Under the pieces are notes generated by a model. That model searched no databases and was not told the origin of the DNA. It saw nothing but the letters and a program-made list of their open reading frames with translations. DNA of 64,000 nt, from assembly GCF_016903815.1 (NCBI RefSeq), contig NZ_CP069973.1. One strand, 5' to 3'. Below, piece by piece: positions 2,405-54,821 of this stretch. Position 1 is the stretch's first letter. The number at the start of each line of letters is the position of its first letter. Source of the stretch: Escherichia coli (GTDB lineage: Bacteria; Pseudomonadota; Gammaproteobacteria; Enterobacterales; Enterobacteriaceae). The position numbers and the translations under genes were made by a program.

Positions 2405-3421
2405 TTAATCGGGATATCCCTGTGGATGGCGTGACTGCCAGTGCCAGGTGTCCTGCGCCATTTCATCGAGTGTGCGCGTCACGCGCCAGTTCAGTTCACG
2501 GTCGGCTTTGCTGGCGTCCGCCCAGTAGGCCGGAAGGTCGCCCTCGCGACGCGGTGCAAAATGATAGTTAACCGGTTTGCCGCAGGCTTTGCTGAAGGCA
2601 TTAACCACGTCCAGCACGCTGCTGCCTACGCCAGCGCCGAGGTTGTAGATGTGTACGCCTGGCTTGTTCGCCAGTTTCTCCATCGCCACGACGTGACCGT
2701 CCGCCAGATCCATTACGTGGATGTAATCGCGTACGCCAGTACCGTCTTCGGTCGGATAATCGTTACCAAAAATCGCCAGCGAGTCGCGACGGCCTACAGC
2801 AACCTGGGCGATGTATGGCATCAGGTTATTCGGAATGCCTTGCGGATCTTCGCCCATATCGCCCGACGGATGTGCGCCAACCGGGTTGAAGTAGCGCAGC
2901 AGGGCAATGCTCCAGTCCGGCTGGGCTTTTTGCAGATCGGTGAGGATCTGTTCAACCATCAGTTTGCTTTTGCCGTAAGGGCTTTGCGGTGTGCCGGTCG
3001 GGAAGCTTTCAACGTATGGAATTTTGGGCTGATCGCCATAAACGGTGGCAGAGGAGCTAAAAATAAAGTTTTTGACGTTCGCGGCGCGCATGGCGCTAAT
3101 CAGGCGGAGAGTACCGTTGACATTGTTGTCGTAATATTCCAGCGGTTTTTGTACCGATTCGCCAACGGCTTTCAGCCCGGCGAAGTGGATCACGGTGTCG
3201 ATAGCGTGATCGTGCAGGATCTCGGTCATCAACGCTTCGTTACGAATATCGCCTTCAACAAACGTTGGATGTTTGCCGCCTAAACGCTCGATAACGGGCA
3301 GTACGCTGCGCTTACTGTTACAGAGGTTATCAAGAATGATGACATCATGACCGTTTTGCAGTAATTGCACACAGGTATGACTTCCAATGTAACCGCTACC
3401 ACCGGTAACCAGAACTCTCAT
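2405..3421 (-). CDS. galE: UDP-glucose 4-epimerase
   Basis: ORF track gives 352 aa; internal ATG at 3421 gives 338 aa beginning MRVLVTGGSGYIGSH (Rossmann GxxGxxG), matching recalled GalE length. Confidence 0.95.
   Translation of the reverse strand: MRVLVTGGSGYIGSHTCVQLLQNGHDVIILDNLCNSKRSVLPVIERLGGKHPTFVEGDIRNEALMTEILHDHAIDTVIHFAGLKAVGESVQKPLEYYDNNVNGTLRLISAMRAANVKNFIFSSSATVYGDQPKIPYVESFPTGTPQSPYGKSKLMVEQILTDLQKAQPDWSIALLRYFNPVGAHPSGDMGEDPQGIPNNLMPYIAQVAVGRRDSLAIFGNDYPTEDGTGVRDYIHVMDLADGHVVAMEKLANKPGVHIYNLGAGVGSSVLDVVNAFSKACGKPVNYHFAPRREGDLPAYWADASKADRELNWRVTRTLDEMAQDTWHWQSRHPQGYPD
3387..3402. promoter_or_regulatory. gal internal operator OI (GalR/GalS)
   Basis: Plus strand ATGTAACCGCTACCAC, reverse complement of the recalled OI sequence GTGGTAGCGGTTACAT, inside the galE 5' coding region. 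Confidence 0.6.
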
Positions 3422-3499
3422 AATTCGCTCCATTAGGCTTATGGTATGAAATAACCATAGCATAACAAAGATGCGAAAAGTGTGACATGGAATAAATTA

Positions 3500-7920: not shown

Positions 7921-8979
7921 ATGCTGGAACTGAATTTTTCCCAGACGTTGGGCAACCATTGCCTGACCATTAATGAAACGCTGCCCGCCAATGGCATCAC
8001 TGCTCTCTTTGGCGTCTCCGGTGCCGGAAAAACTTCGCTGATTAACGCCATCAGTGGACTGACGCGCCCGCAAAAAGGGCGGATTGTCCTCAATGGGCGG
8101 GTACTAAATGATGCCGAAAAAGGTATCTGCCTGACGCCGGAAAAGCGTCGCGTTGGCTATGTTTTTCAGGATGCGCGGCTGTTCCCGCATTACAAAGTGC
8201 GTGGCAATCTGCGCTACGGCATGTCGAAAAGTATGGTCGATCAGTTCGATAAGCTGGTGGCGCTTTTAGGCATTGAACCGTTGCTTGACCGTTTACCAGG
8301 CAGCCTGTCCGGAGGCGAAAAACAGCGCGTGGCGATTGGTCGGGCTTTGCTGACAGCACCGGAATTGCTGTTGCTGGATGAACCGCTGGCGTCACTGGAT
8401 ATTCCGCGTAAACGCGAACTGTTGCCTTATCTGCAACGGCTGACACGGGAAATCAACATTCCGATGTTGTATGTCAGCCATTCGCTGGATGAGATCCTCC
8501 ATCTGGCAGACAGAGTGATGGTACTGGAAAACGGTCAGGTGAAAGCCTTTGGCGCGCTGGAGGAAGTGTGGGGCAGTAGCGTGATGAATCCGTGGCTGCC
8601 GAAAGAGCAACAAAGTAGCATTCTGAAAGTGACGGTGCTTGAGCATCATCCGCATTACGCGATGACCGCGCTGGCGCTGGGCGATCAGCATTTGTGGGTC
8701 AATAAGCTGGACGAACCGCTGCAAGCTGCGCTACGTATCCGCATTCAGGCTTCCGATGTTTCTCTGGTTTTACAACCGCCGCAGCAAACCAGCATTCGTA
8801 ACGTATTGCGGGCAAAAGTTGTTAATAGTTATGACGACAACGGCCAGGTGGAAGTGGAGCTGGAAGTCGGCGGTAAAACGCTGTGGGCGCGTATCAGCCC
8901 GTGGGCCAGGGATGAACTGGCGATCAAACCAGGCCTGTGGCTGTACGCGCAAATTAAAAGTGTGTCGATAACCGCCTGA
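7921..8979 (+). CDS. modC: molybdate ABC transporter ATPase
   Basis: 352 aa ORF with Walker [10 protein letters not shown] and signature LSGGEKQR. Confidence 0.97.
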
Positions 8980-9798
8980 TTAAATCAGGTGGCTATAAAT
9001 GAACCGGGCAATGCTGTCGGTGGTGTTATCACCAATCACAATGTTGGCGCGCGCTTTTACCGCATCATCGGCGTTGCCCATCGCCACGCCTGTACCAGCG
9101 GCCTCCAGCATACTGATATCATTAAAGTTATCGCCGAAGGCCACGACGTTTTCCATCGACCAGCCTTGCGCCTCAACCCATTTCGTCAAACGTTTACCTT
9201 TGCTGTTGCCGCCGCGTGCAATATCAACCTGATCCTGCCAGGACCATTCACACTCAAGTCCCAGTTCATGTTCGACATGCTTACCAAAATGCTGCAATTG
9301 CGGCAGGTCATCGTGCGTCAGGGCGAACTTCCATACGGCGTTAACTTGTTGCGCCGTTTCAGCCAGAGAAGCGACTTGTGTGAAAGTCGGACGCTGTTCC
9401 GGCGGCAGGGTTTGCGCCCAGTTAGACGTGCGAATGACATGCCCGGTCGGGTGCTCATAGACCATCGCATCATCCACATACATCAGACCGTGAATGTGGT
9501 GTTCATTCAGCATCTCAATGAGTTGCAGGGCTTTATTAACGGGCATTGGGTCCGCTTCCAGCACTGTTTTTGCATGATAATCATACAAATAGGTGCCATT
9601 ACAGCAAATAGCAGGTGTATCCAGCGCCAGCGCCTGATAAAAAGGATGAATAGCGACGTGATGGCGACCTGTGACGATGATTAATTGATAGCCTGCTTCG
9701 CAAGCGCGGGCTAGGGCTTCTATCGATGATGGAAGCAAGGTCTTTTTCGGGGTCAATAAGGTGCCGTCTAAGTCGAGAGCAATCACGCGTGTGGTCAT
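8980..9798 (-). CDS. ybhA: HAD-family (Cof-like) phosphatase, pyridoxal phosphate phosphatase
   Basis: ORF track 306 aa; internal ATG giving 272 aa MTTRVIALDLDGTLL (HAD DxDGT motif) matches recalled YbhA. Confidence 0.9.
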   Translation of the reverse strand: MTTRVIALDLDGTLLTPKKTLLPSSIEALARACEAGYQLIIVTGRHHVAIHPFYQALALDTPAICCNGTYLYDYHAKTVLEADPMPVNKALQLIEMLNEHHIHGLMYVDDAMVYEHPTGHVIRTSNWAQTLPPEQRPTFTQVASLAETAQQVNAVWKFALTHDDLPQLQHFGKHVEHELGLECEWSWQDQVDIARGGNSKGKRLTKWVEAQGWSMENVVAFGDNFNDISMLEAAGTGVAMGNADDAVKARANIVIGDNTTDSIARFIYSHLI

Positions 9799-9916
9799 GG
9801 CGTATTCCAGATTAAGGTTAAGAATTTTCGTCTGCGCGAATGGTACACCGATACCACTATCGGACAAAATTCTGCGTTTTAATTCAGCATTCACCGCCAA
9901 AAGCGACTAATTTTAG

Positions 9917-10948
<1,032 letters not shown>

Positions 10949-27917: not shown

Positions 27918-27974
27918 AAAGTGTGGATGGTAAAAATCTCATTTACGCGCTAGTATCGGCTTAACCACTAAACA

Positions 27975-28092
27975 CTCTAGCCTCTGCACCTGGGTCAACT
28001 GATACGGTGCTTTGGCCGTGACAATGCTCGTAAAGATTGCCACCAGGGCGAAGGAAGAAATGACTTCGCCTCCCGTATCTGGAAAGGTGTAC
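27975..28092 (+). ncRNA. moaA 5' leader, putative Moco (molybdenum cofactor) riboswitch
   Basis: Long structured leader (CCUCUGCACCUGGGUCAACUGAUACGGUGC...GCCACCAGGGCGAAGG...) ending at the moaA RBS; placement and sequence fit the recalled Moco RNA motif; extent approximate. Confidence 0.55.
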
Positions 28093-29082
28093 ATGGCTTC
28101 ACAACTGACTGATGCATTTGCGCGTAAGTTTTACTACTTGCGCCTGTCGATTACTGATGTGTGTAACTTTCGTTGCACCTACTGCCTGCCGGATGGCTAC
28201 AAACCGAGCGGCGTCACCAATAAAGGCTTTCTTACCGTCGATGAAATTCGCCGGGTTACGCGCGCCTTTGCCAGTCTGGGCACCGAAAAAGTGCGCCTGA
28301 CAGGCGGTGAGCCGTCTTTACGCCGCGACTTTACCGATATCATCGCCGCTGTGCGGGAAAACGACGCTATCCGCCAGATTGCGGTCACCACCAATGGTTA
28401 CCGTCTGGAACGCGATGTGGCGAACTGGCGCGATGCGGGACTTACTGGCATCAACGTCAGCGTTGATAGCCTTGACGCTCGCCAGTTTCATGCCATTACC
28501 GGGCAGGATAAATTCAACCAGGTCATGGCAGGGATCGATGCTGCATTTGAGGCCGGTTTTGAGAAGGTCAAAGTCAATACCGTGCTGATGCGTGATGTTA
28601 ATCATCATCAGCTCGACACCTTTCTGAACTGGATCCAGCATCGCCCTATCCAGCTGCGTTTCATCGAATTGATGGAAACGGGCGAGGGCAGCGAGCTCTT
28701 CCGTAAGCATCACATCTCTGGTCAGGTTCTGCGTGACGAGCTACTGCGTCGCGGCTGGATCCACCAATTACGTCAACGCAGCGACGGTCCCGCGCAAGTC
28801 TTTTGTCATCCGGATTACGCCGGAGAGATTGGCCTTATCATGCCGTATGAAAAAGACTTCTGCGCCACTTGCAACCGCCTGCGCGTTTCCTCCATTGGTA
28901 AACTCCATCTCTGCCTGTTTGGTGAAGGCGGCGTTAACCTGCGCGATCTGCTGGAAGACGATACCCAGCAACAGGCGCTGGAAGCGCGTATTTCAGCGGC
29001 GCTGCGGGAGAAGAAACAGACCCATTTCCTGCACCAAAACAACACCGGTATTACGCAAAACTTATCGTACATTGGCGGCTAA
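28093..29082 (+). CDS. moaA: GTP 3',8-cyclase (radical SAM)
   Basis: ORF track 356 aa; ATG at 28093 ([31 protein letters not shown]) gives 329 aa with CxxxCxxC. Confidence 0.95.
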
Positions 29083-31683: not shown

Positions 31684-32395
31684 TGCACAGAAAACCCCCA
31701 GCTAGGCTGGGGGTTCCGGAAAGCTTTCAGCTTTGAGCCAGTTATTAAAACCCCTTTTGATTTGTTAAAACACCTTGCGGTCTGGCAACTGCAAGTGTCA
31801 AACAAGAAATCAAAAGGGGGTCCCAATGGGGAACGAAAAGAGCTTAGCGCACACCCGATGGAACTGTAAATATCACATAGTTTTTGCGCCAAAATACCGA
31901 AGACAGGTGTTCTACAGAGAGAAGCGTAGAGCAATAGGCAGTATTTTGAGAAAGCTGTGTGAGTGGAAAAGCGTACGGATTCTGGAAGCTGAATGCTGTG
32001 CAGATCATATCCATATGCTTGTGGAGATCCCGCCCAAAATGAGCGTATCCGGGTTTATGGGATATCTGAAAGGGAAAAGCAGTCTGATGCTTTACGAGCA
32101 GTTTGGTGATTTGAAATTCAAATACAGGAACAGGGAGTTCTGGTGCAGAGGGTACTACGTCGATACAGTGGGTAAGAACACGGCGAAGATACAGGATTAC
32201 ATAAAGCACCAGCTTGAAGAGGATAAAATGGGAGAGCAGTTATCGATTCCCTATCCGGGCAGCCCGTTTACGGGCCGTAAGTAACGAAGTTGGATGCAAA
32301 TGTCAGATCGTGTGCGCCTGTTAGGGCGCGGCTGGTAAGAGAGCCTTATAGGCGCATTTGAAAAACCTCCGGCTATGCCGGAGGATATTTATTTC
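31684..32395 (+). mobile_element. IS200-family insertion sequence (IS200/IS605 family, about 0.7 kb)
   Basis: Contains Y1 transposase gene; left-end perfect palindrome AAACCCCCAGC-TAG-GCTGGGGGTT and a right-end subterminal hairpin CCTCCGGC-TAT-GCCGGAGG; ends approximate (about ±15 bp). Confidence 0.7.
31826..32284 (+). CDS. tnpA: IS200 TnpA (HUH/Y1 transposase, 152 aa)
   Basis: MGNEKSLAHTRWNCKYHIVFAPKYRR...HIHMLVEIPPK... closely matches recalled Salmonella IS200 TnpA; ORF track's upstream extension rejected. Confidence 0.92.
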   Translation: MGNEKSLAHTRWNCKYHIVFAPKYRRQVFYREKRRAIGSILRKLCEWKSVRILEAECCADHIHMLVEIPPKMSVSGFMGYLKGKSSLMLYEQFGDLKFKYRNREFWCRGYYVDTVGKNTAKIQDYIKHQLEEDKMGEQLSIPYPGSPFTGRK

Positions 32396-32553: not shown

Positions 32554-32943
32554 ATGGAATCATACTCGCAAAACAGCAATAAATTAGATTTTCAGCACGA
32601 GGCCAGGATATTAAACGGTATATGGCTCATTACCGCTTTGGGTATGGTGGCAACCGCAGGGCTGGTCCTGGTGATCATCATGAATGCCGCATTAATGAGT
32701 GAACGACCCGTTTGGGTAATAAGTTGCTTAATGATAGTGTTATGGTCAGGCATTATCTCGCATGGACGAAATAAGCTCCTTGAACTGGCAGGAAAATGCC
32801 ATAGCGAAGAGTTGTGGAGTCCGGTTCGTTGCGCTTTTACAGGTGCATTAACACTCTATTACTATTTTATCGGCTTCTTTGGGATACTTGCCGCTATAGC
32901 TATAACGCTTGTCTGGCAAAGGCATACGCGTTTTTTTCATTAG
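32554..32943 (+). CDS. ybhM: YbhM-like membrane protein, apparently truncated (129 aa)
   Basis: N-terminus MESYSQNSNKLDFQHEARILNGIW, about 3 TM segments; much shorter than the ~237 aa I recall for K-12 ybhM. Confidence 0.65.
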   Translation: MESYSQNSNKLDFQHEARILNGIWLITALGMVATAGLVLVIIMNAALMSERPVWVISCLMIVLWSGIISHGRNKLLELAGKCHSEELWSPVRCAFTGALTLYYYFIGFFGILAAIAITLVWQRHTRFFH

Positions 32944-53894: not shown

Positions 53895-54821
53895 ATGTCC
53901 GCCCAGAAACCGGGGTTGCATCCGCGCAACCGTCATCACAGCCGCTACGATCTCGCCACGCTTTGTCAGGTCAATCCTGAACTCAGGCAATTCCTCACGC
54001 TTACACCCGCCGGGGAGCAAAGCGTAGACTTTGCCAATCCGCTGGCGGTGAAGGCGCTCAATAAGGCGTTGCTGGCCCATTTTTACGCCGTAGCGAACTG
54101 GGATATCCCCGACGGTTTTCTCTGCCCGCCAGTACCGGGCCGGGCGGATTATATTCATCACCTTGCCGATTTACTGGCAGAAGCAAGCGGAACAATTCCA
54201 GCTAATGCCAGCATTCTGGATATCGGCGTTGGTGCGAACTGTATTTACCCGCTGATTGGTGTACATGAATATGGCTGGCGTTTTACTGGTAGTGAAACCA
54301 GCAGCCAGGCGTTAAGCAGTGCGCAGGCGATCATCAGTGCTAATCCGGGGCTTAACCGCGCCATTCGTCTGCGTCGGCAAAAAGAGAGTGGGGCGATTTT
54401 TAACGGCATCATCCATAAAAACGAGCAATACGACGCGACCTTGTGTAACCCGCCATTCCACGATTCCGCCGCTGCGGCACGGGCAGGTAGTGAACGTAAA
54501 CGCCGTAACCTGGGGCTGAACAAAGACGATGCACTGAACTTTGGTGGTCAGCAACAGGAGTTGTGGTGTGAAGGCGGTGAAGTCGCTTTTATCAAAAAGA
54601 TGATTGAAGAGAGCAAAGGCTTCGCGAAGCAGGTGATGTGGTTTACCTCGCTGGTATCTCGTGGCGAAAACTTGCCGCCGTTGTATCGTGCTCTGACGGA
54701 CGTGGGCGCGGTGAAAGTGGTCAAAAAAGAGATGGCCCAGGGGCAAAAGCAGAGCCGCTTTATTGCCTGGACCTTTATGAACGACGAGCAGCGCCGCCGT
54801 TTTGTCAATCGCCAGCGTTAA
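53895..54821 (+). CDS. rlmF: 23S rRNA m6A1618 methyltransferase
   Basis: 308 aa ORF with NPPFH motif. Confidence 0.95.

Follow-up and report, generated by a model that had tools for sequence, protein, structure and literature searches.

The concept of the excludon reportedly goes back to Sesto et al. 2013. In its convergent form, two neighbouring genes on opposite strands face each other tail to tail, their transcripts overlap at the 3′ ends, and mutually exclusive expression is the defining outcome. Table 1 of the ExcludonFinder study (NAR 2025, PMC12288877) names modC/ybhA, ybhQ/ybhR and rlmF-ybiO as convergent excludons of E. coli; both the phenomenon and the two gene pairs treated here are already published. 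Related descriptions exist for other features considered at these loci. Convergent overlapping genes are known to arise by 3′ extension after a stop-codon change (PMC2716372; PMC4161906), Rho-dependent transcripts have been described that keep precise ends behind protective 3′ stem-loops (Dar & Sorek 2018, PMC6061677), and collision-driven bidirectional terminators have been reported as boundary stem-loops without a U-tract (Ju et al. 2019; Wang et al., bioRxiv 10.1101/2022.10.23.513370).

In this line, we have followed up the convergent pairs modC/ybhA and ybhQ/ybhR in a window of 64,000 nt from Escherichia coli (the whole stretch of DNA that was analysed, from contig NZ_CP069973.1). The two layouts are likely to represent an ordinary and ancient way in which Enterobacteriaceae pack convergent genes as tightly as possible, each mRNA ending inside the coding sequence of its partner and the transcripts overlapping.

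Layout and conservation of the two junctions

The modC gene, coding for the ATPase of the molybdate ABC transporter, occupies positions 7921-8979 of the plus strand and ends with a TGA at 8977-8979, and ybhA, coding for a PLP/FBP phosphatase of the HAD family, occupies 8980-9798 of the minus strand, with its TAA stop (the reverse complement of TTA) at 8980-8982. The stops of both genes adjoin and the gap is 0. In the second pair, ybhQ (36067-36477, plus strand) codes for an inner-membrane protein of 136 aa from family PF11076, and ybhR (36439-37545, minus strand), an ABC-2 permease gene, closes the cecR-ybhGFSR cluster. They share a dual-coding, codon-aligned stretch of 39 nt on both strands (36439-36477), where the ybhR stop lies opposite a TTA codon of ybhQ, the ybhQ stop lies opposite a TCA codon of ybhR, and the 12-residue tail of YbhQ is the antisense reading of the 11-residue tail of YbhR. 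The coordinates of both pairs are identical in the NCBI PGAP annotation of strain 7/2, to which the window is 100% identical, and in the RefSeq annotation of K-12 MG1655, confirming two statements of an earlier note on this DNA, namely that the modC stop (8979) abuts the ybhA stop (8980) and that ybhQ and ybhR overlap by 39 nt. The same note had left a door open to misassigned stops, which can be closed because the Pfam domains extend to the C-termini (Hydrolase_3 spans residues 6-267 of 272 in YbhA, TOBE 290-351 of 352 in ModC and ABC2_membrane_2 6-366 of 368 in YbhR); moreover, orthologues from 76 species align to the last residue and carry the stop directly after it. Both frames of ybhQ/ybhR are equally genuine genes, with a Pfam match for each protein and a conserved overlap. 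The arrangement is real and conserved, yet it is not rare: three of the nine convergent junctions of the window have a gap of 0 or less (0 for modC/ybhA, -39 for ybhQ/ybhR and -4 for rlmF/ybiO), the other six gaps ranging from 35 to 138 nt, and the published count for E. coli amounts to 75 convergent overlapping pairs (PMC4161906).

Among the Enterobacteriaceae, the zero gap between modC and ybhA is kept in 76 of 79 species loci, with stop codons that vary between TAA, TAG and TGA, and Kosakonia pseudosacchari has a modC/ybhA spacer of 108 nt that carries a canonical terminator. For ybhQ and ybhR, an overlap of 39 nt is found in each of the 43 sequences that were compared, with 37 distinct ones overall; they cover Citrobacter, Salmonella, Leclercia, Enterobacter and a taxon whose YbhQ identity is 65%. 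One assembly from error-prone long reads, which has frameshifts and shows a 31-nt 'overlap', was left out of this comparison. At loci lacking ybhR, YbhQ has no such tail and a canonical terminator-like hairpin with a T-run follows ybhQ. As a control, the pgl/ybhD spacer showed eight different lengths (30-65 nt) in 12 loci, the only ones where this control was usable, since the adjacency is rarely conserved (12 of 80 loci). Regarding constraint on the shared codons, third positions were invariant in three of seven cases within the overlap versus 47 of 267 elsewhere (p = 0.12) in an unbiased set of six genera. A larger set of 34 ybhR sequences was not used for this purpose because the search pattern itself fixes codons 359-366, and the low synonymous change seen there within the overlap was discarded as an artefact of that pattern. 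Altogether, the layouts may persist because the protein domains fill the genes to the last residue and almost no neutral DNA is left for insertions, a persistence that need not mean selection for the overlap. The C-terminal tail of YbhQ, in turn, would have arisen by extension into ybhR.

Transcript ends within the partner genes

Public data from K-12 were used to place the ends of the transcripts. Term-seq ends and Rho-dependent regions were taken from Supplementary file 2 of PMC7815308, where the published sequences span -50 to +10 around each end and were set to window positions through the K-12 annotation, and further 3′ ends (TRS) from the tables of PMC10687069. Strand-resolved sense and antisense RNA, RNase III mutants and p19-captured dsRNA, with the duplexes listed in Table S3, came from PMC7373196. 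All these transcripts belong to K-12 grown in LB or minimal medium and not to the strain of the window, and modABC was presumably repressed there by ModE-molybdate. With no spacer available, each mRNA 3′ end has to form inside the partner coding sequence, and the transcripts consequently overlap. The earlier note held that there is no room for a terminator on either strand, which stands for the intergenic DNA and fails for the partner genes, where the end-forming elements sit (36483-36513 and 9716-9748). Its expectation that termination takes place within coding sequence was right for both mapped mRNAs: ybhA ends 100 nt inside modC, and ybhQ extends into ybhR, stopping 40 nt beyond its own stop codon.

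The ybhQ end is the sharper one. A stem at 36483-36513 of the plus strand (-20.3 kcal/mol, z = -4.24), opposite ybhR codons 345-355, is followed 4 nt later by the mRNA end at 36517 (MG1655 825080), which Term-seq recovers in two conditions and classes as 'primary ybhQ / antisense ybhR', and which the TRS data place at 825079-81 as a second independent dataset. There is no U-tract after this stem (the tail reads AACTATTCCACAC), and a terminator scan makes no call. Two Rho-dependent regions delimit the span 36366-36619 (both strands; PMC7815308 Supplementary file 2), their positions being imprecise because each is given as the best position within an 800-nt window: a plus-strand region at about 825182 (window 36619), which lies 142 nt beyond the ybhQ stop and has a score of 3.95 and p = 5e-7, and a minus-strand region at 824929 (window 36366), which lies inside ybhQ, 73 nt beyond the ybhR stop, and has a score of 3.85. 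Both regions are bicyclomycin-sensitive, and the plus-strand one is about 100 nt beyond the ybhQ mRNA end. The C/G ratio of 36514-36640 is 1.24, compared with 0.96 in the window as a whole, which is weak as a rut-like signal. The minimum overlap of the two transcripts is the 152 nt between 36366 and 36517. This picture fits what has been published on Rho-dependent 3′ ends (PMC6061677). The ybhQ transcript would be terminated by Rho and then trimmed back to the protective stem-loop, and Rho would free the transcripts of the ybhR operon after the ribosomes have come off at the stop codon. The position of the stem beside the mapped end is the sole basis on which we infer an end-forming role for it. 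Pairing was kept in 88.5% of cells versus 88.3% after shuffling, with one double change among 37 sequences, a covariation test made uninformative by a stem that hardly varies. Synonymous-site suppression was absent at the stem codons of 34 full-length ybhR sequences (entropy 0.90 against a background of 0.93), where the suppression seen in the six-genus set (4/7, p = 0.024) failed to hold.

On the other side, the ybhA mRNA has a 3′ UTR of about 100 nt (8880-8979, minus strand; 101 nt according to TRS) that lies wholly antisense inside the modC coding sequence and ends at 8880 (MG1655 797513) behind a weak stem followed by UUUU. For modC, no 3′ end is mapped in the public Term-seq, TRS or TERMITe data, and scanning the sequence after the gene found no terminator-like site before 9716. 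At that position, a plus-strand hairpin (9716-9736) with a stem of nine pairs is followed by AAGG, a TCTTTTT stretch containing a T5 run and a Term-seq end at 9748 (MG1655 798381), the features of an intrinsic terminator. This element (9716-9748) lies antisense within ybhA codons ~17-28, near the 5′ end of the gene; its hairpin is limited to Escherichia and its T-run is conserved as the antisense of Lys-Lys codons. Directly after modC, the plus strand also holds a shadow ORF of 231 aa (8989-9684), antisense to ybhA and with no Pfam match, which we take to be probably the historical 'modD'. The operon is called modABCD in the title of an older paper.

In the reading we prefer, modABC would have no terminator of its own, and part of its transcription would read antisense through all of ybhA (~770 nt) as far as the terminator-like element at 9716-9748. 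This reading is vulnerable where it concerns the source of the plus-strand RNA over ybhA. The best surviving alternative, which we regard as a rather improbable one, attributes this RNA to an independent antisense transcript with a promoter of its own inside ybhA. Such promoters are common in E. coli (PMC7373196), the public maps contain neither a modC-linked 3′ end nor a full-length transcript, and per kb the antisense RNA over ybhA reaches only some 25% of the modC level. A consensus scan of 8900-10000 found no sigma-70-like promoter on either strand, although a scan of this kind cannot exclude an internal antisense promoter. Against the alternative also stand the stretch free of terminator-like sites from modC to 9716, and the published call of a 3′-overlap excludon for this pair, which is based on the coverage of 58 RNA-seq samples, at least 50% of which had to show it.

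Antisense RNA, its possible consequences and the palindrome at the stops

The antisense overlap expected in the earlier note is borne out by the public 3′-end maps together with strand-resolved RNA, which show antisense RNA and captured dsRNA for both pairs. Wild-type sense/antisense levels were 19.4/18.7 RPM for ybhA and 14.2/24.0 RPM for ybhR, so that plus-strand RNA over ybhA is about as abundant as the sense RNA and antisense exceeds sense over ybhR; the values for modC and ybhQ were 94.2/2.4 and 111/5.0 RPM. A simple calculation from the ybhQ level (111 RPM × 79/411 nt) gives ~21 RPM, near the 24 RPM observed antisense to ybhR. Capture by p19 recovered 83-491 RPM over ybhA and 24-354 RPM over ybhQ and ybhR, compared with 11-30 RPM for ybhS and 17-36 RPM for modC, and Table S3 of PMC7373196 includes a perfectly paired duplex, captured by RNase III/p19, inside ybhA (9618-9639, both strands).

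Whether this RNA does anything is another matter. The suggestion of the earlier note that the arrangement may produce antisense regulation is unsupported: in the rnc-14 and rnc-38 mutants of RNase III the sense RNA of ybhA, ybhR, ybhQ and modC was not raised (from 19.4 to 18.5 and 15.0 RPM, respectively, for ybhA, and from 14.2 to 11.6 and 6.2 RPM for ybhR), and a literature search returned no study of either pair and no known functional link between the partners. A further search on ybhA expression in relation to molybdate or ModE retrieved only unrelated papers. Under standard conditions, any effect on regulation is probably small. It has to be weighed, however, that the overlap could have been selected, each pair being a functional excludon in which transcription of one gene represses the partner through head-on interference and/or cleavage of the duplex by RNase III. 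As an example, molybdate starvation would derepress modABC and in this way silence the PLP phosphatase YbhA. This explanation can draw on the presence of both pairs in the published excludome, on the higher synteny of excludon pairs, on the exactly conserved architecture of the junctions and on the levels of antisense RNA and p19-enriched dsRNA given above. We nevertheless judge it unlikely, as the flat sense RNA in both mutants and the missing link between the partners speak against it, some species carry a spacer or an insertion, and the lack of neutral DNA at the junctions accounts more simply for their conservation. Even more doubtful is a specific version in which derepressed modABC, devoid of its own terminator, would run through ybhA up to the Escherichia-specific intrinsic terminator and lower YbhA in molybdate starvation, the ybhQ stem-loop being likewise a selected dual-use element in ybhR codons.

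A third reading concerns an imperfect palindrome at 8968-8996 (both strands), whose 14-nt arms are 86% complementary and centred on the two stop codons (8982). Its predicted folds on the two strands have energies of -15.9 and -14.7 kcal/mol (z = -2.6 and -3.0), and it has no U-tract. As the end-forming element it was rejected: of the features of an intrinsic terminator only the hairpin is present, the U-tract and a mapped end being absent, and its cross-species support is weak. One reading would make it a bidirectional terminator driven by RNA-polymerase collision, halting both transcripts at the gene boundary; a symmetric stem-loop exactly between the genes, folding on both strands and lacking a U-tract as described for that class, would suit this role, and a comparison of genera reveals some double changes at pair 21-45. 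We consider this highly improbable. In the available maps, made under presumably repressing conditions for modABC, neither Term-seq nor TRS places a 3′ end within 8968-8996 on either strand, the dominant ybhA end lies ~90 nt further, at 8880, and plus-strand RNA runs on over ybhA to 9748. Moreover, pairing across species is close to the shuffled level (78.3% observed versus 76.9%), the outer pairs are open in most species and a C.A mismatch interrupts the middle of the stem in 25 of 72 sequences. The palindrome is probably incidental, and a search of Rfam families gave no match at either junction, even at E <= 1.

Finally, next to no credence can be given to the tight junctions being annotation artefacts (misplaced stops or a spurious ybhQ), for which no support was found beyond ybhQ being small and poorly characterised, given that domains reach the C-termini, protein lengths and stop positions are kept across genera, and YbhQ belongs to a Pfam family (PF11076) and has an mRNA with a mapped 3′ end.

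Comparison with described systems

Beyond bookkeeping, the significance of the two loci is little. They are textbook cases of mRNA 3′-end formation without a spacer between convergent genes, where the signals that form the ends relocate into the coding sequence of the partner, here as a protective stem-loop, as Rho-dependent termination and as an intrinsic-type terminator, and duplex RNA forms. A zero gap and a 39-nt overlap kept across the family, together with a natural spacer variant that carries a canonical terminator, could suit them for tests of excludon function.

Both pairs share with convergent excludons the opposite-strand, tail-to-tail neighbours and the overlapping 3′ ends of their transcripts. 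They differ in that the mutually exclusive expression that defines the class is only putative for them, sense RNA staying flat in the RNase III mutants, and in that the overlap comes here from absent intergenic DNA rather than from a spacer bridged by a long 3′ UTR. With the overlaps created by 3′ extension (PMC2716372; PMC4161906), ybhQ/ybhR has in common its tail-to-tail orientation, a YbhQ tail found only where ybhR lies opposite, and the origin of that tail as an antisense reading of the conserved YbhR C-terminus. In contrast, its 39 nt exceed the 4 nt of rlmF/ybiO, the other convergent overlap of the window, and this length stays the same throughout a broad set of genera.

The ybhQ mRNA shows the same precise end after a U-tract-less stem as the Rho-dependent transcripts of Dar & Sorek (2018, PMC6061677), with a bicyclomycin-sensitive region ~100 nt downstream. 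In this case, however, an opposite-strand gene harbours both the stem-loop and the presumed rut within its coding sequence, the C-over-G bias is weak, and trimming would have to be assumed. As for the collision-driven bidirectional terminators (Ju et al. 2019; Wang et al., bioRxiv 10.1101/2022.10.23.513370), modC/ybhA presents the same kind of boundary stem-loop between convergent genes, also free of a U-tract, whereas no ends fall at it and the transcripts continue ~100 nt past it in one direction and up to ~770 nt in the other.

Gene layout and conservation of the convergent junctions

The plus-strand gene modC (7921..8979) ends with a TGA at 8977-8979 that directly abuts the TAA of the minus-strand gene ybhA (8980..9798; plus-strand TTA at 8980-8982), leaving a gap of zero between the two ORFs, and ybhQ (36067..36477, plus strand) shares 39 nt with ybhR (36439..37545, minus strand). 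The boundaries of the four genes are the same in the PGAP annotation of E. coli strain 7/2, whose chromosome is 100% identical to the window, and in the K-12 MG1655 RefSeq annotation, so that both the abutting stops and the 39-nt 3' overlap described in the earlier note are exact. The overlap is codon-aligned, with the ybhR stop opposite a Leu codon of ybhQ and the ybhQ stop opposite a Ser codon of ybhR. A misassignment of the stops, which had been left as a way out for modC/ybhA, is ruled out by the C-terminal domains and the orthologue alignments. The annotated stops of modC, ybhA and ybhR are correct, as Pfam domains reach the C-termini of ModC (TOBE, residues 290-351 of 352), YbhA (Hydrolase_3, 6-267 of 272) and YbhR (ABC2_membrane_2, 6-366 of 368), and alignments of ModC and YbhA orthologues from 80 species-level loci retrieved with YbhA extend to the last residue, with the stop directly after it.

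Of the 79 loci containing both genes, 76 have the zero gap; they range from Escherichia to Klebsiella and Kosakonia, with identities down to 75% for YbhA and 79% for ModC and with variable stop codons (TAA/TAG/TGA). The modC/ybhA adjacency is kept in 79/80 loci versus 12 for the neighbouring control pair pgl/ybhD, whose spacer shows eight different lengths (30-65 nt) among those 12. We read this conservation as a frozen state, because the last residues are needed by both proteins and neutral insertion is possible solely at the junction itself. The only clean spacer among the species loci is that of Kosakonia pseudosacchari (108 nt; positions 3320-3427 of its locus, L072), a natural counter-example to the zero gap that carries a canonical terminator in the modC direction, with a GC hairpin, CGCCCCTG-cgt-CAGGGGCG, then the T-tract TCATCTTTT. 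In the Enterobacteriaceae MAG UBA3516 (locus L035, 3320-5393), ybhA and modC are separated by an insertion of ~2 kb that is bordered by a duplication of the modC 3' end. One of its two genes specifies a 183-aa protein carrying an HExxH motif, the other a product of 119 aa whose N-terminus is lipoprotein-like; the insertion may be an effector/immunity-type cassette. The third exception, a Citrobacter koseri record, is probably a frameshift or assembly error.

The ybhQ/ybhR overlap keeps its 39 nt in Citrobacter, Salmonella, Leclercia and Enterobacter, also in a taxon with YbhQ only 65% identical, and in 37 distinct sequences in total, metagenome contigs included. The YbhQ tail SKHR[VI]R[RH], an antisense reading of YbhR AYAMFRR, is restricted to loci with ybhR on the opposite strand. 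A distant relative (L093, 2388-2500) has no ybhR, and rhlE follows ybhQ there; its YbhQ has 128 aa, 8 aa fewer, with a hairpin and T-run of its own downstream. These sequences fit an overlap that arose by 3' extension.

Tight convergent junctions are ordinary rather than very unusual. The nine in the window have gaps of 0, 40, 69, 37, 35, -39, 138, -4 and 48 nt, and in a published survey E. coli had 75 pairs of convergent overlapping genes (PMC4161906). The -4 junction, rlmF/ybiO, is a third tight one, with the TTAA at 54818-54821 common to both stops.

Elsewhere in the window, an IS200C transposase gene (31826-32284), with an Rfam STnc490 sRNA match at its left end (31693-31816), and a neighbouring hypothetical gene of 129 aa (32554-32943) lie between ybhL and ybhN. 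Between rhlE and dinG, the stop of a 146-aa hypothetical gene overlaps the start of a RelE/ParE-family toxin gene (44270-44551), and the two (43830-44551) look like a toxin-antitoxin pair; dinG itself (44722-46873) is a frameshifted pseudogene in the strain 7/2 annotation. Upstream of moaA, 27961-28105 holds a molybdenum-cofactor riboswitch (103 bits to Rfam RF01055), with published Term-seq ends just within that gene.

Transcript ends at modC/ybhA

The TRS map places the ybhA 3' end at 797513(-), with a 3' UTR of 101 nt (PMC10687069), that is, at window position 8880, ~100 nt into modC, with a weak stem ahead of it and UUUU following. No modC 3' end appears in the published K-12 3'-end tables examined, including Term-seq (PMC7815308) and TRS (PMC10687069). 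The only nearby plus-strand end, Term-seq 798381 (window 9748), is antisense to ybhA and directly follows a T5 run preceded by a hairpin of nine pairs (9716-9736), a site also called by a terminator scan. This intrinsic-terminator-like element (9716-9748, plus strand) lies antisense in ybhA codons about 17-28; its hairpin is restricted to Escherichia, and its T-run lies opposite conserved Lys-Lys codons.

We infer that some modABC transcription continues in antisense through the whole of ybhA up to 9748, with an internal antisense promoter as a live rival source of the RNA over ybhA. A scan of both strands from 8900 to 10000 gave no sigma-70-like promoter. Directly 3' of modC and antisense to ybhA, a 231-aa plus-strand ORF with a GTG start (8989-9684) gave no Pfam match and is probably a shadow ORF, the one named 'modD' in older 'modABCD' nomenclature. 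The title of a 1999 paper calls the operon modABCD.

The modC/ybhA stops are spanned by a palindrome whose 14-nt arms fold together on both strands. Its pairing among 72 distinct sequences was 78.3% versus 76.9% when shuffled; the outer pairs were open in most of them, and 25 had a C.A mismatch in the middle of the stem. As no 3' end is mapped there, we see in it a by-product of the two genes' terminal codons. Neither this junction nor ybhQ/ybhR matched Rfam.

Duplex RNA and the proposed antisense regulation

The ExcludonFinder list of 165 convergent excludons, each found in half or more of 58 RNA-seq samples, includes modC-ybhA, ybhQ-ybhR and rlmF-ybiO; in the same work, convergent excludons could not be validated by dsRNA capture (PMC12288877). 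The finding is an ordinary and already catalogued one. In wild-type total RNA (PMC7373196), sense/antisense levels were 94.2/2.4 RPM for modC, 19.4/18.7 for ybhA, 111/5.0 for ybhQ, 14.2/24.0 for ybhR and 16.2/1.2 for ybhS, and p19-captured dsRNA over six samples reached, in the same order, 17-36, 83-491, 29-342, 24-354 and 11-30 RPM, where only 13.5% of genes had at least 100 RPM in the stationary-phase sample. By our own arithmetic, the ybhQ mRNA tail would yield ~21 RPM (111 x 79/411), close to the ybhR antisense signal (24.0 RPM). A perfectly paired RNase III-type duplex within ybhA, listed in PMC7373196, was placed at window 9618-9639.

Sense RNA did not rise in two RNase III mutants, neither for ybhA (19.4 to 18.5 and 15.0) nor for ybhR (14.2 to 11.6 and 6.2; PMC7373196), which leaves the suggested antisense regulation unsupported. 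No link of ybhA expression to molybdate status was found in the literature. On structure, the interpretation is right, and existing data document it: in published K-12 maps transcripts end within partner coding sequence as proposed, ybhA inside modC and ybhQ inside ybhR.

Transcript ends at ybhQ/ybhR

Term-seq found, in two conditions, a dominant 3' end at MG1655 825080(+), classed as 'primary ybhQ, antisense ybhR' (PMC7815308), and TRS places the ybhQ end at the same site (825079-81; PMC10687069). Converted through ybhQ (MG1655 824630..825040) and the -50 to +10 span of the published sequences relative to the end, it corresponds to window 36517, 40 nt beyond the ybhQ stop and 79 nt into ybhR. 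Another Term-seq end at ~36127 (+) (MG1655 824690), 60 nt into the ybhQ ORF (intrinsic-terminator score 4.9, Rho score 0.6), could reflect premature termination or processing.

The 36517 end lies 4 nt downstream of a stem-loop (36483-36513; -20.3 kcal/mol, z = -4.24) with no U-tract after it. This stem-loop is well conserved (88.5% of cells paired), with no covariation; nor were synonymous sites suppressed among 34 full-length ybhR sequences, where a small-sample hint of suppression from six genera failed to hold. Its core is set by Trp-Pro and Ala-Thr codons, and therefore RNA-level selection on it is unproven.

Bicyclomycin-sensitive regions (PMC7815308) were reported at 825182(+), window 36619, and at 824929(-), window 36366, the latter within ybhQ and 73 nt past the ybhR stop; together with the ybhQ end, this minus-strand Rho region gives a transcript overlap of at least 152 nt. 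With its precise end, a stem-loop lacking a U-tract and a bicyclomycin-sensitive region beyond, the ybhQ 3' anatomy matches that described for Rho-dependent mRNAs, which end precisely a short way past stable stem-loops that no U-tract follows and have their rut sites further downstream (PMC6061677).
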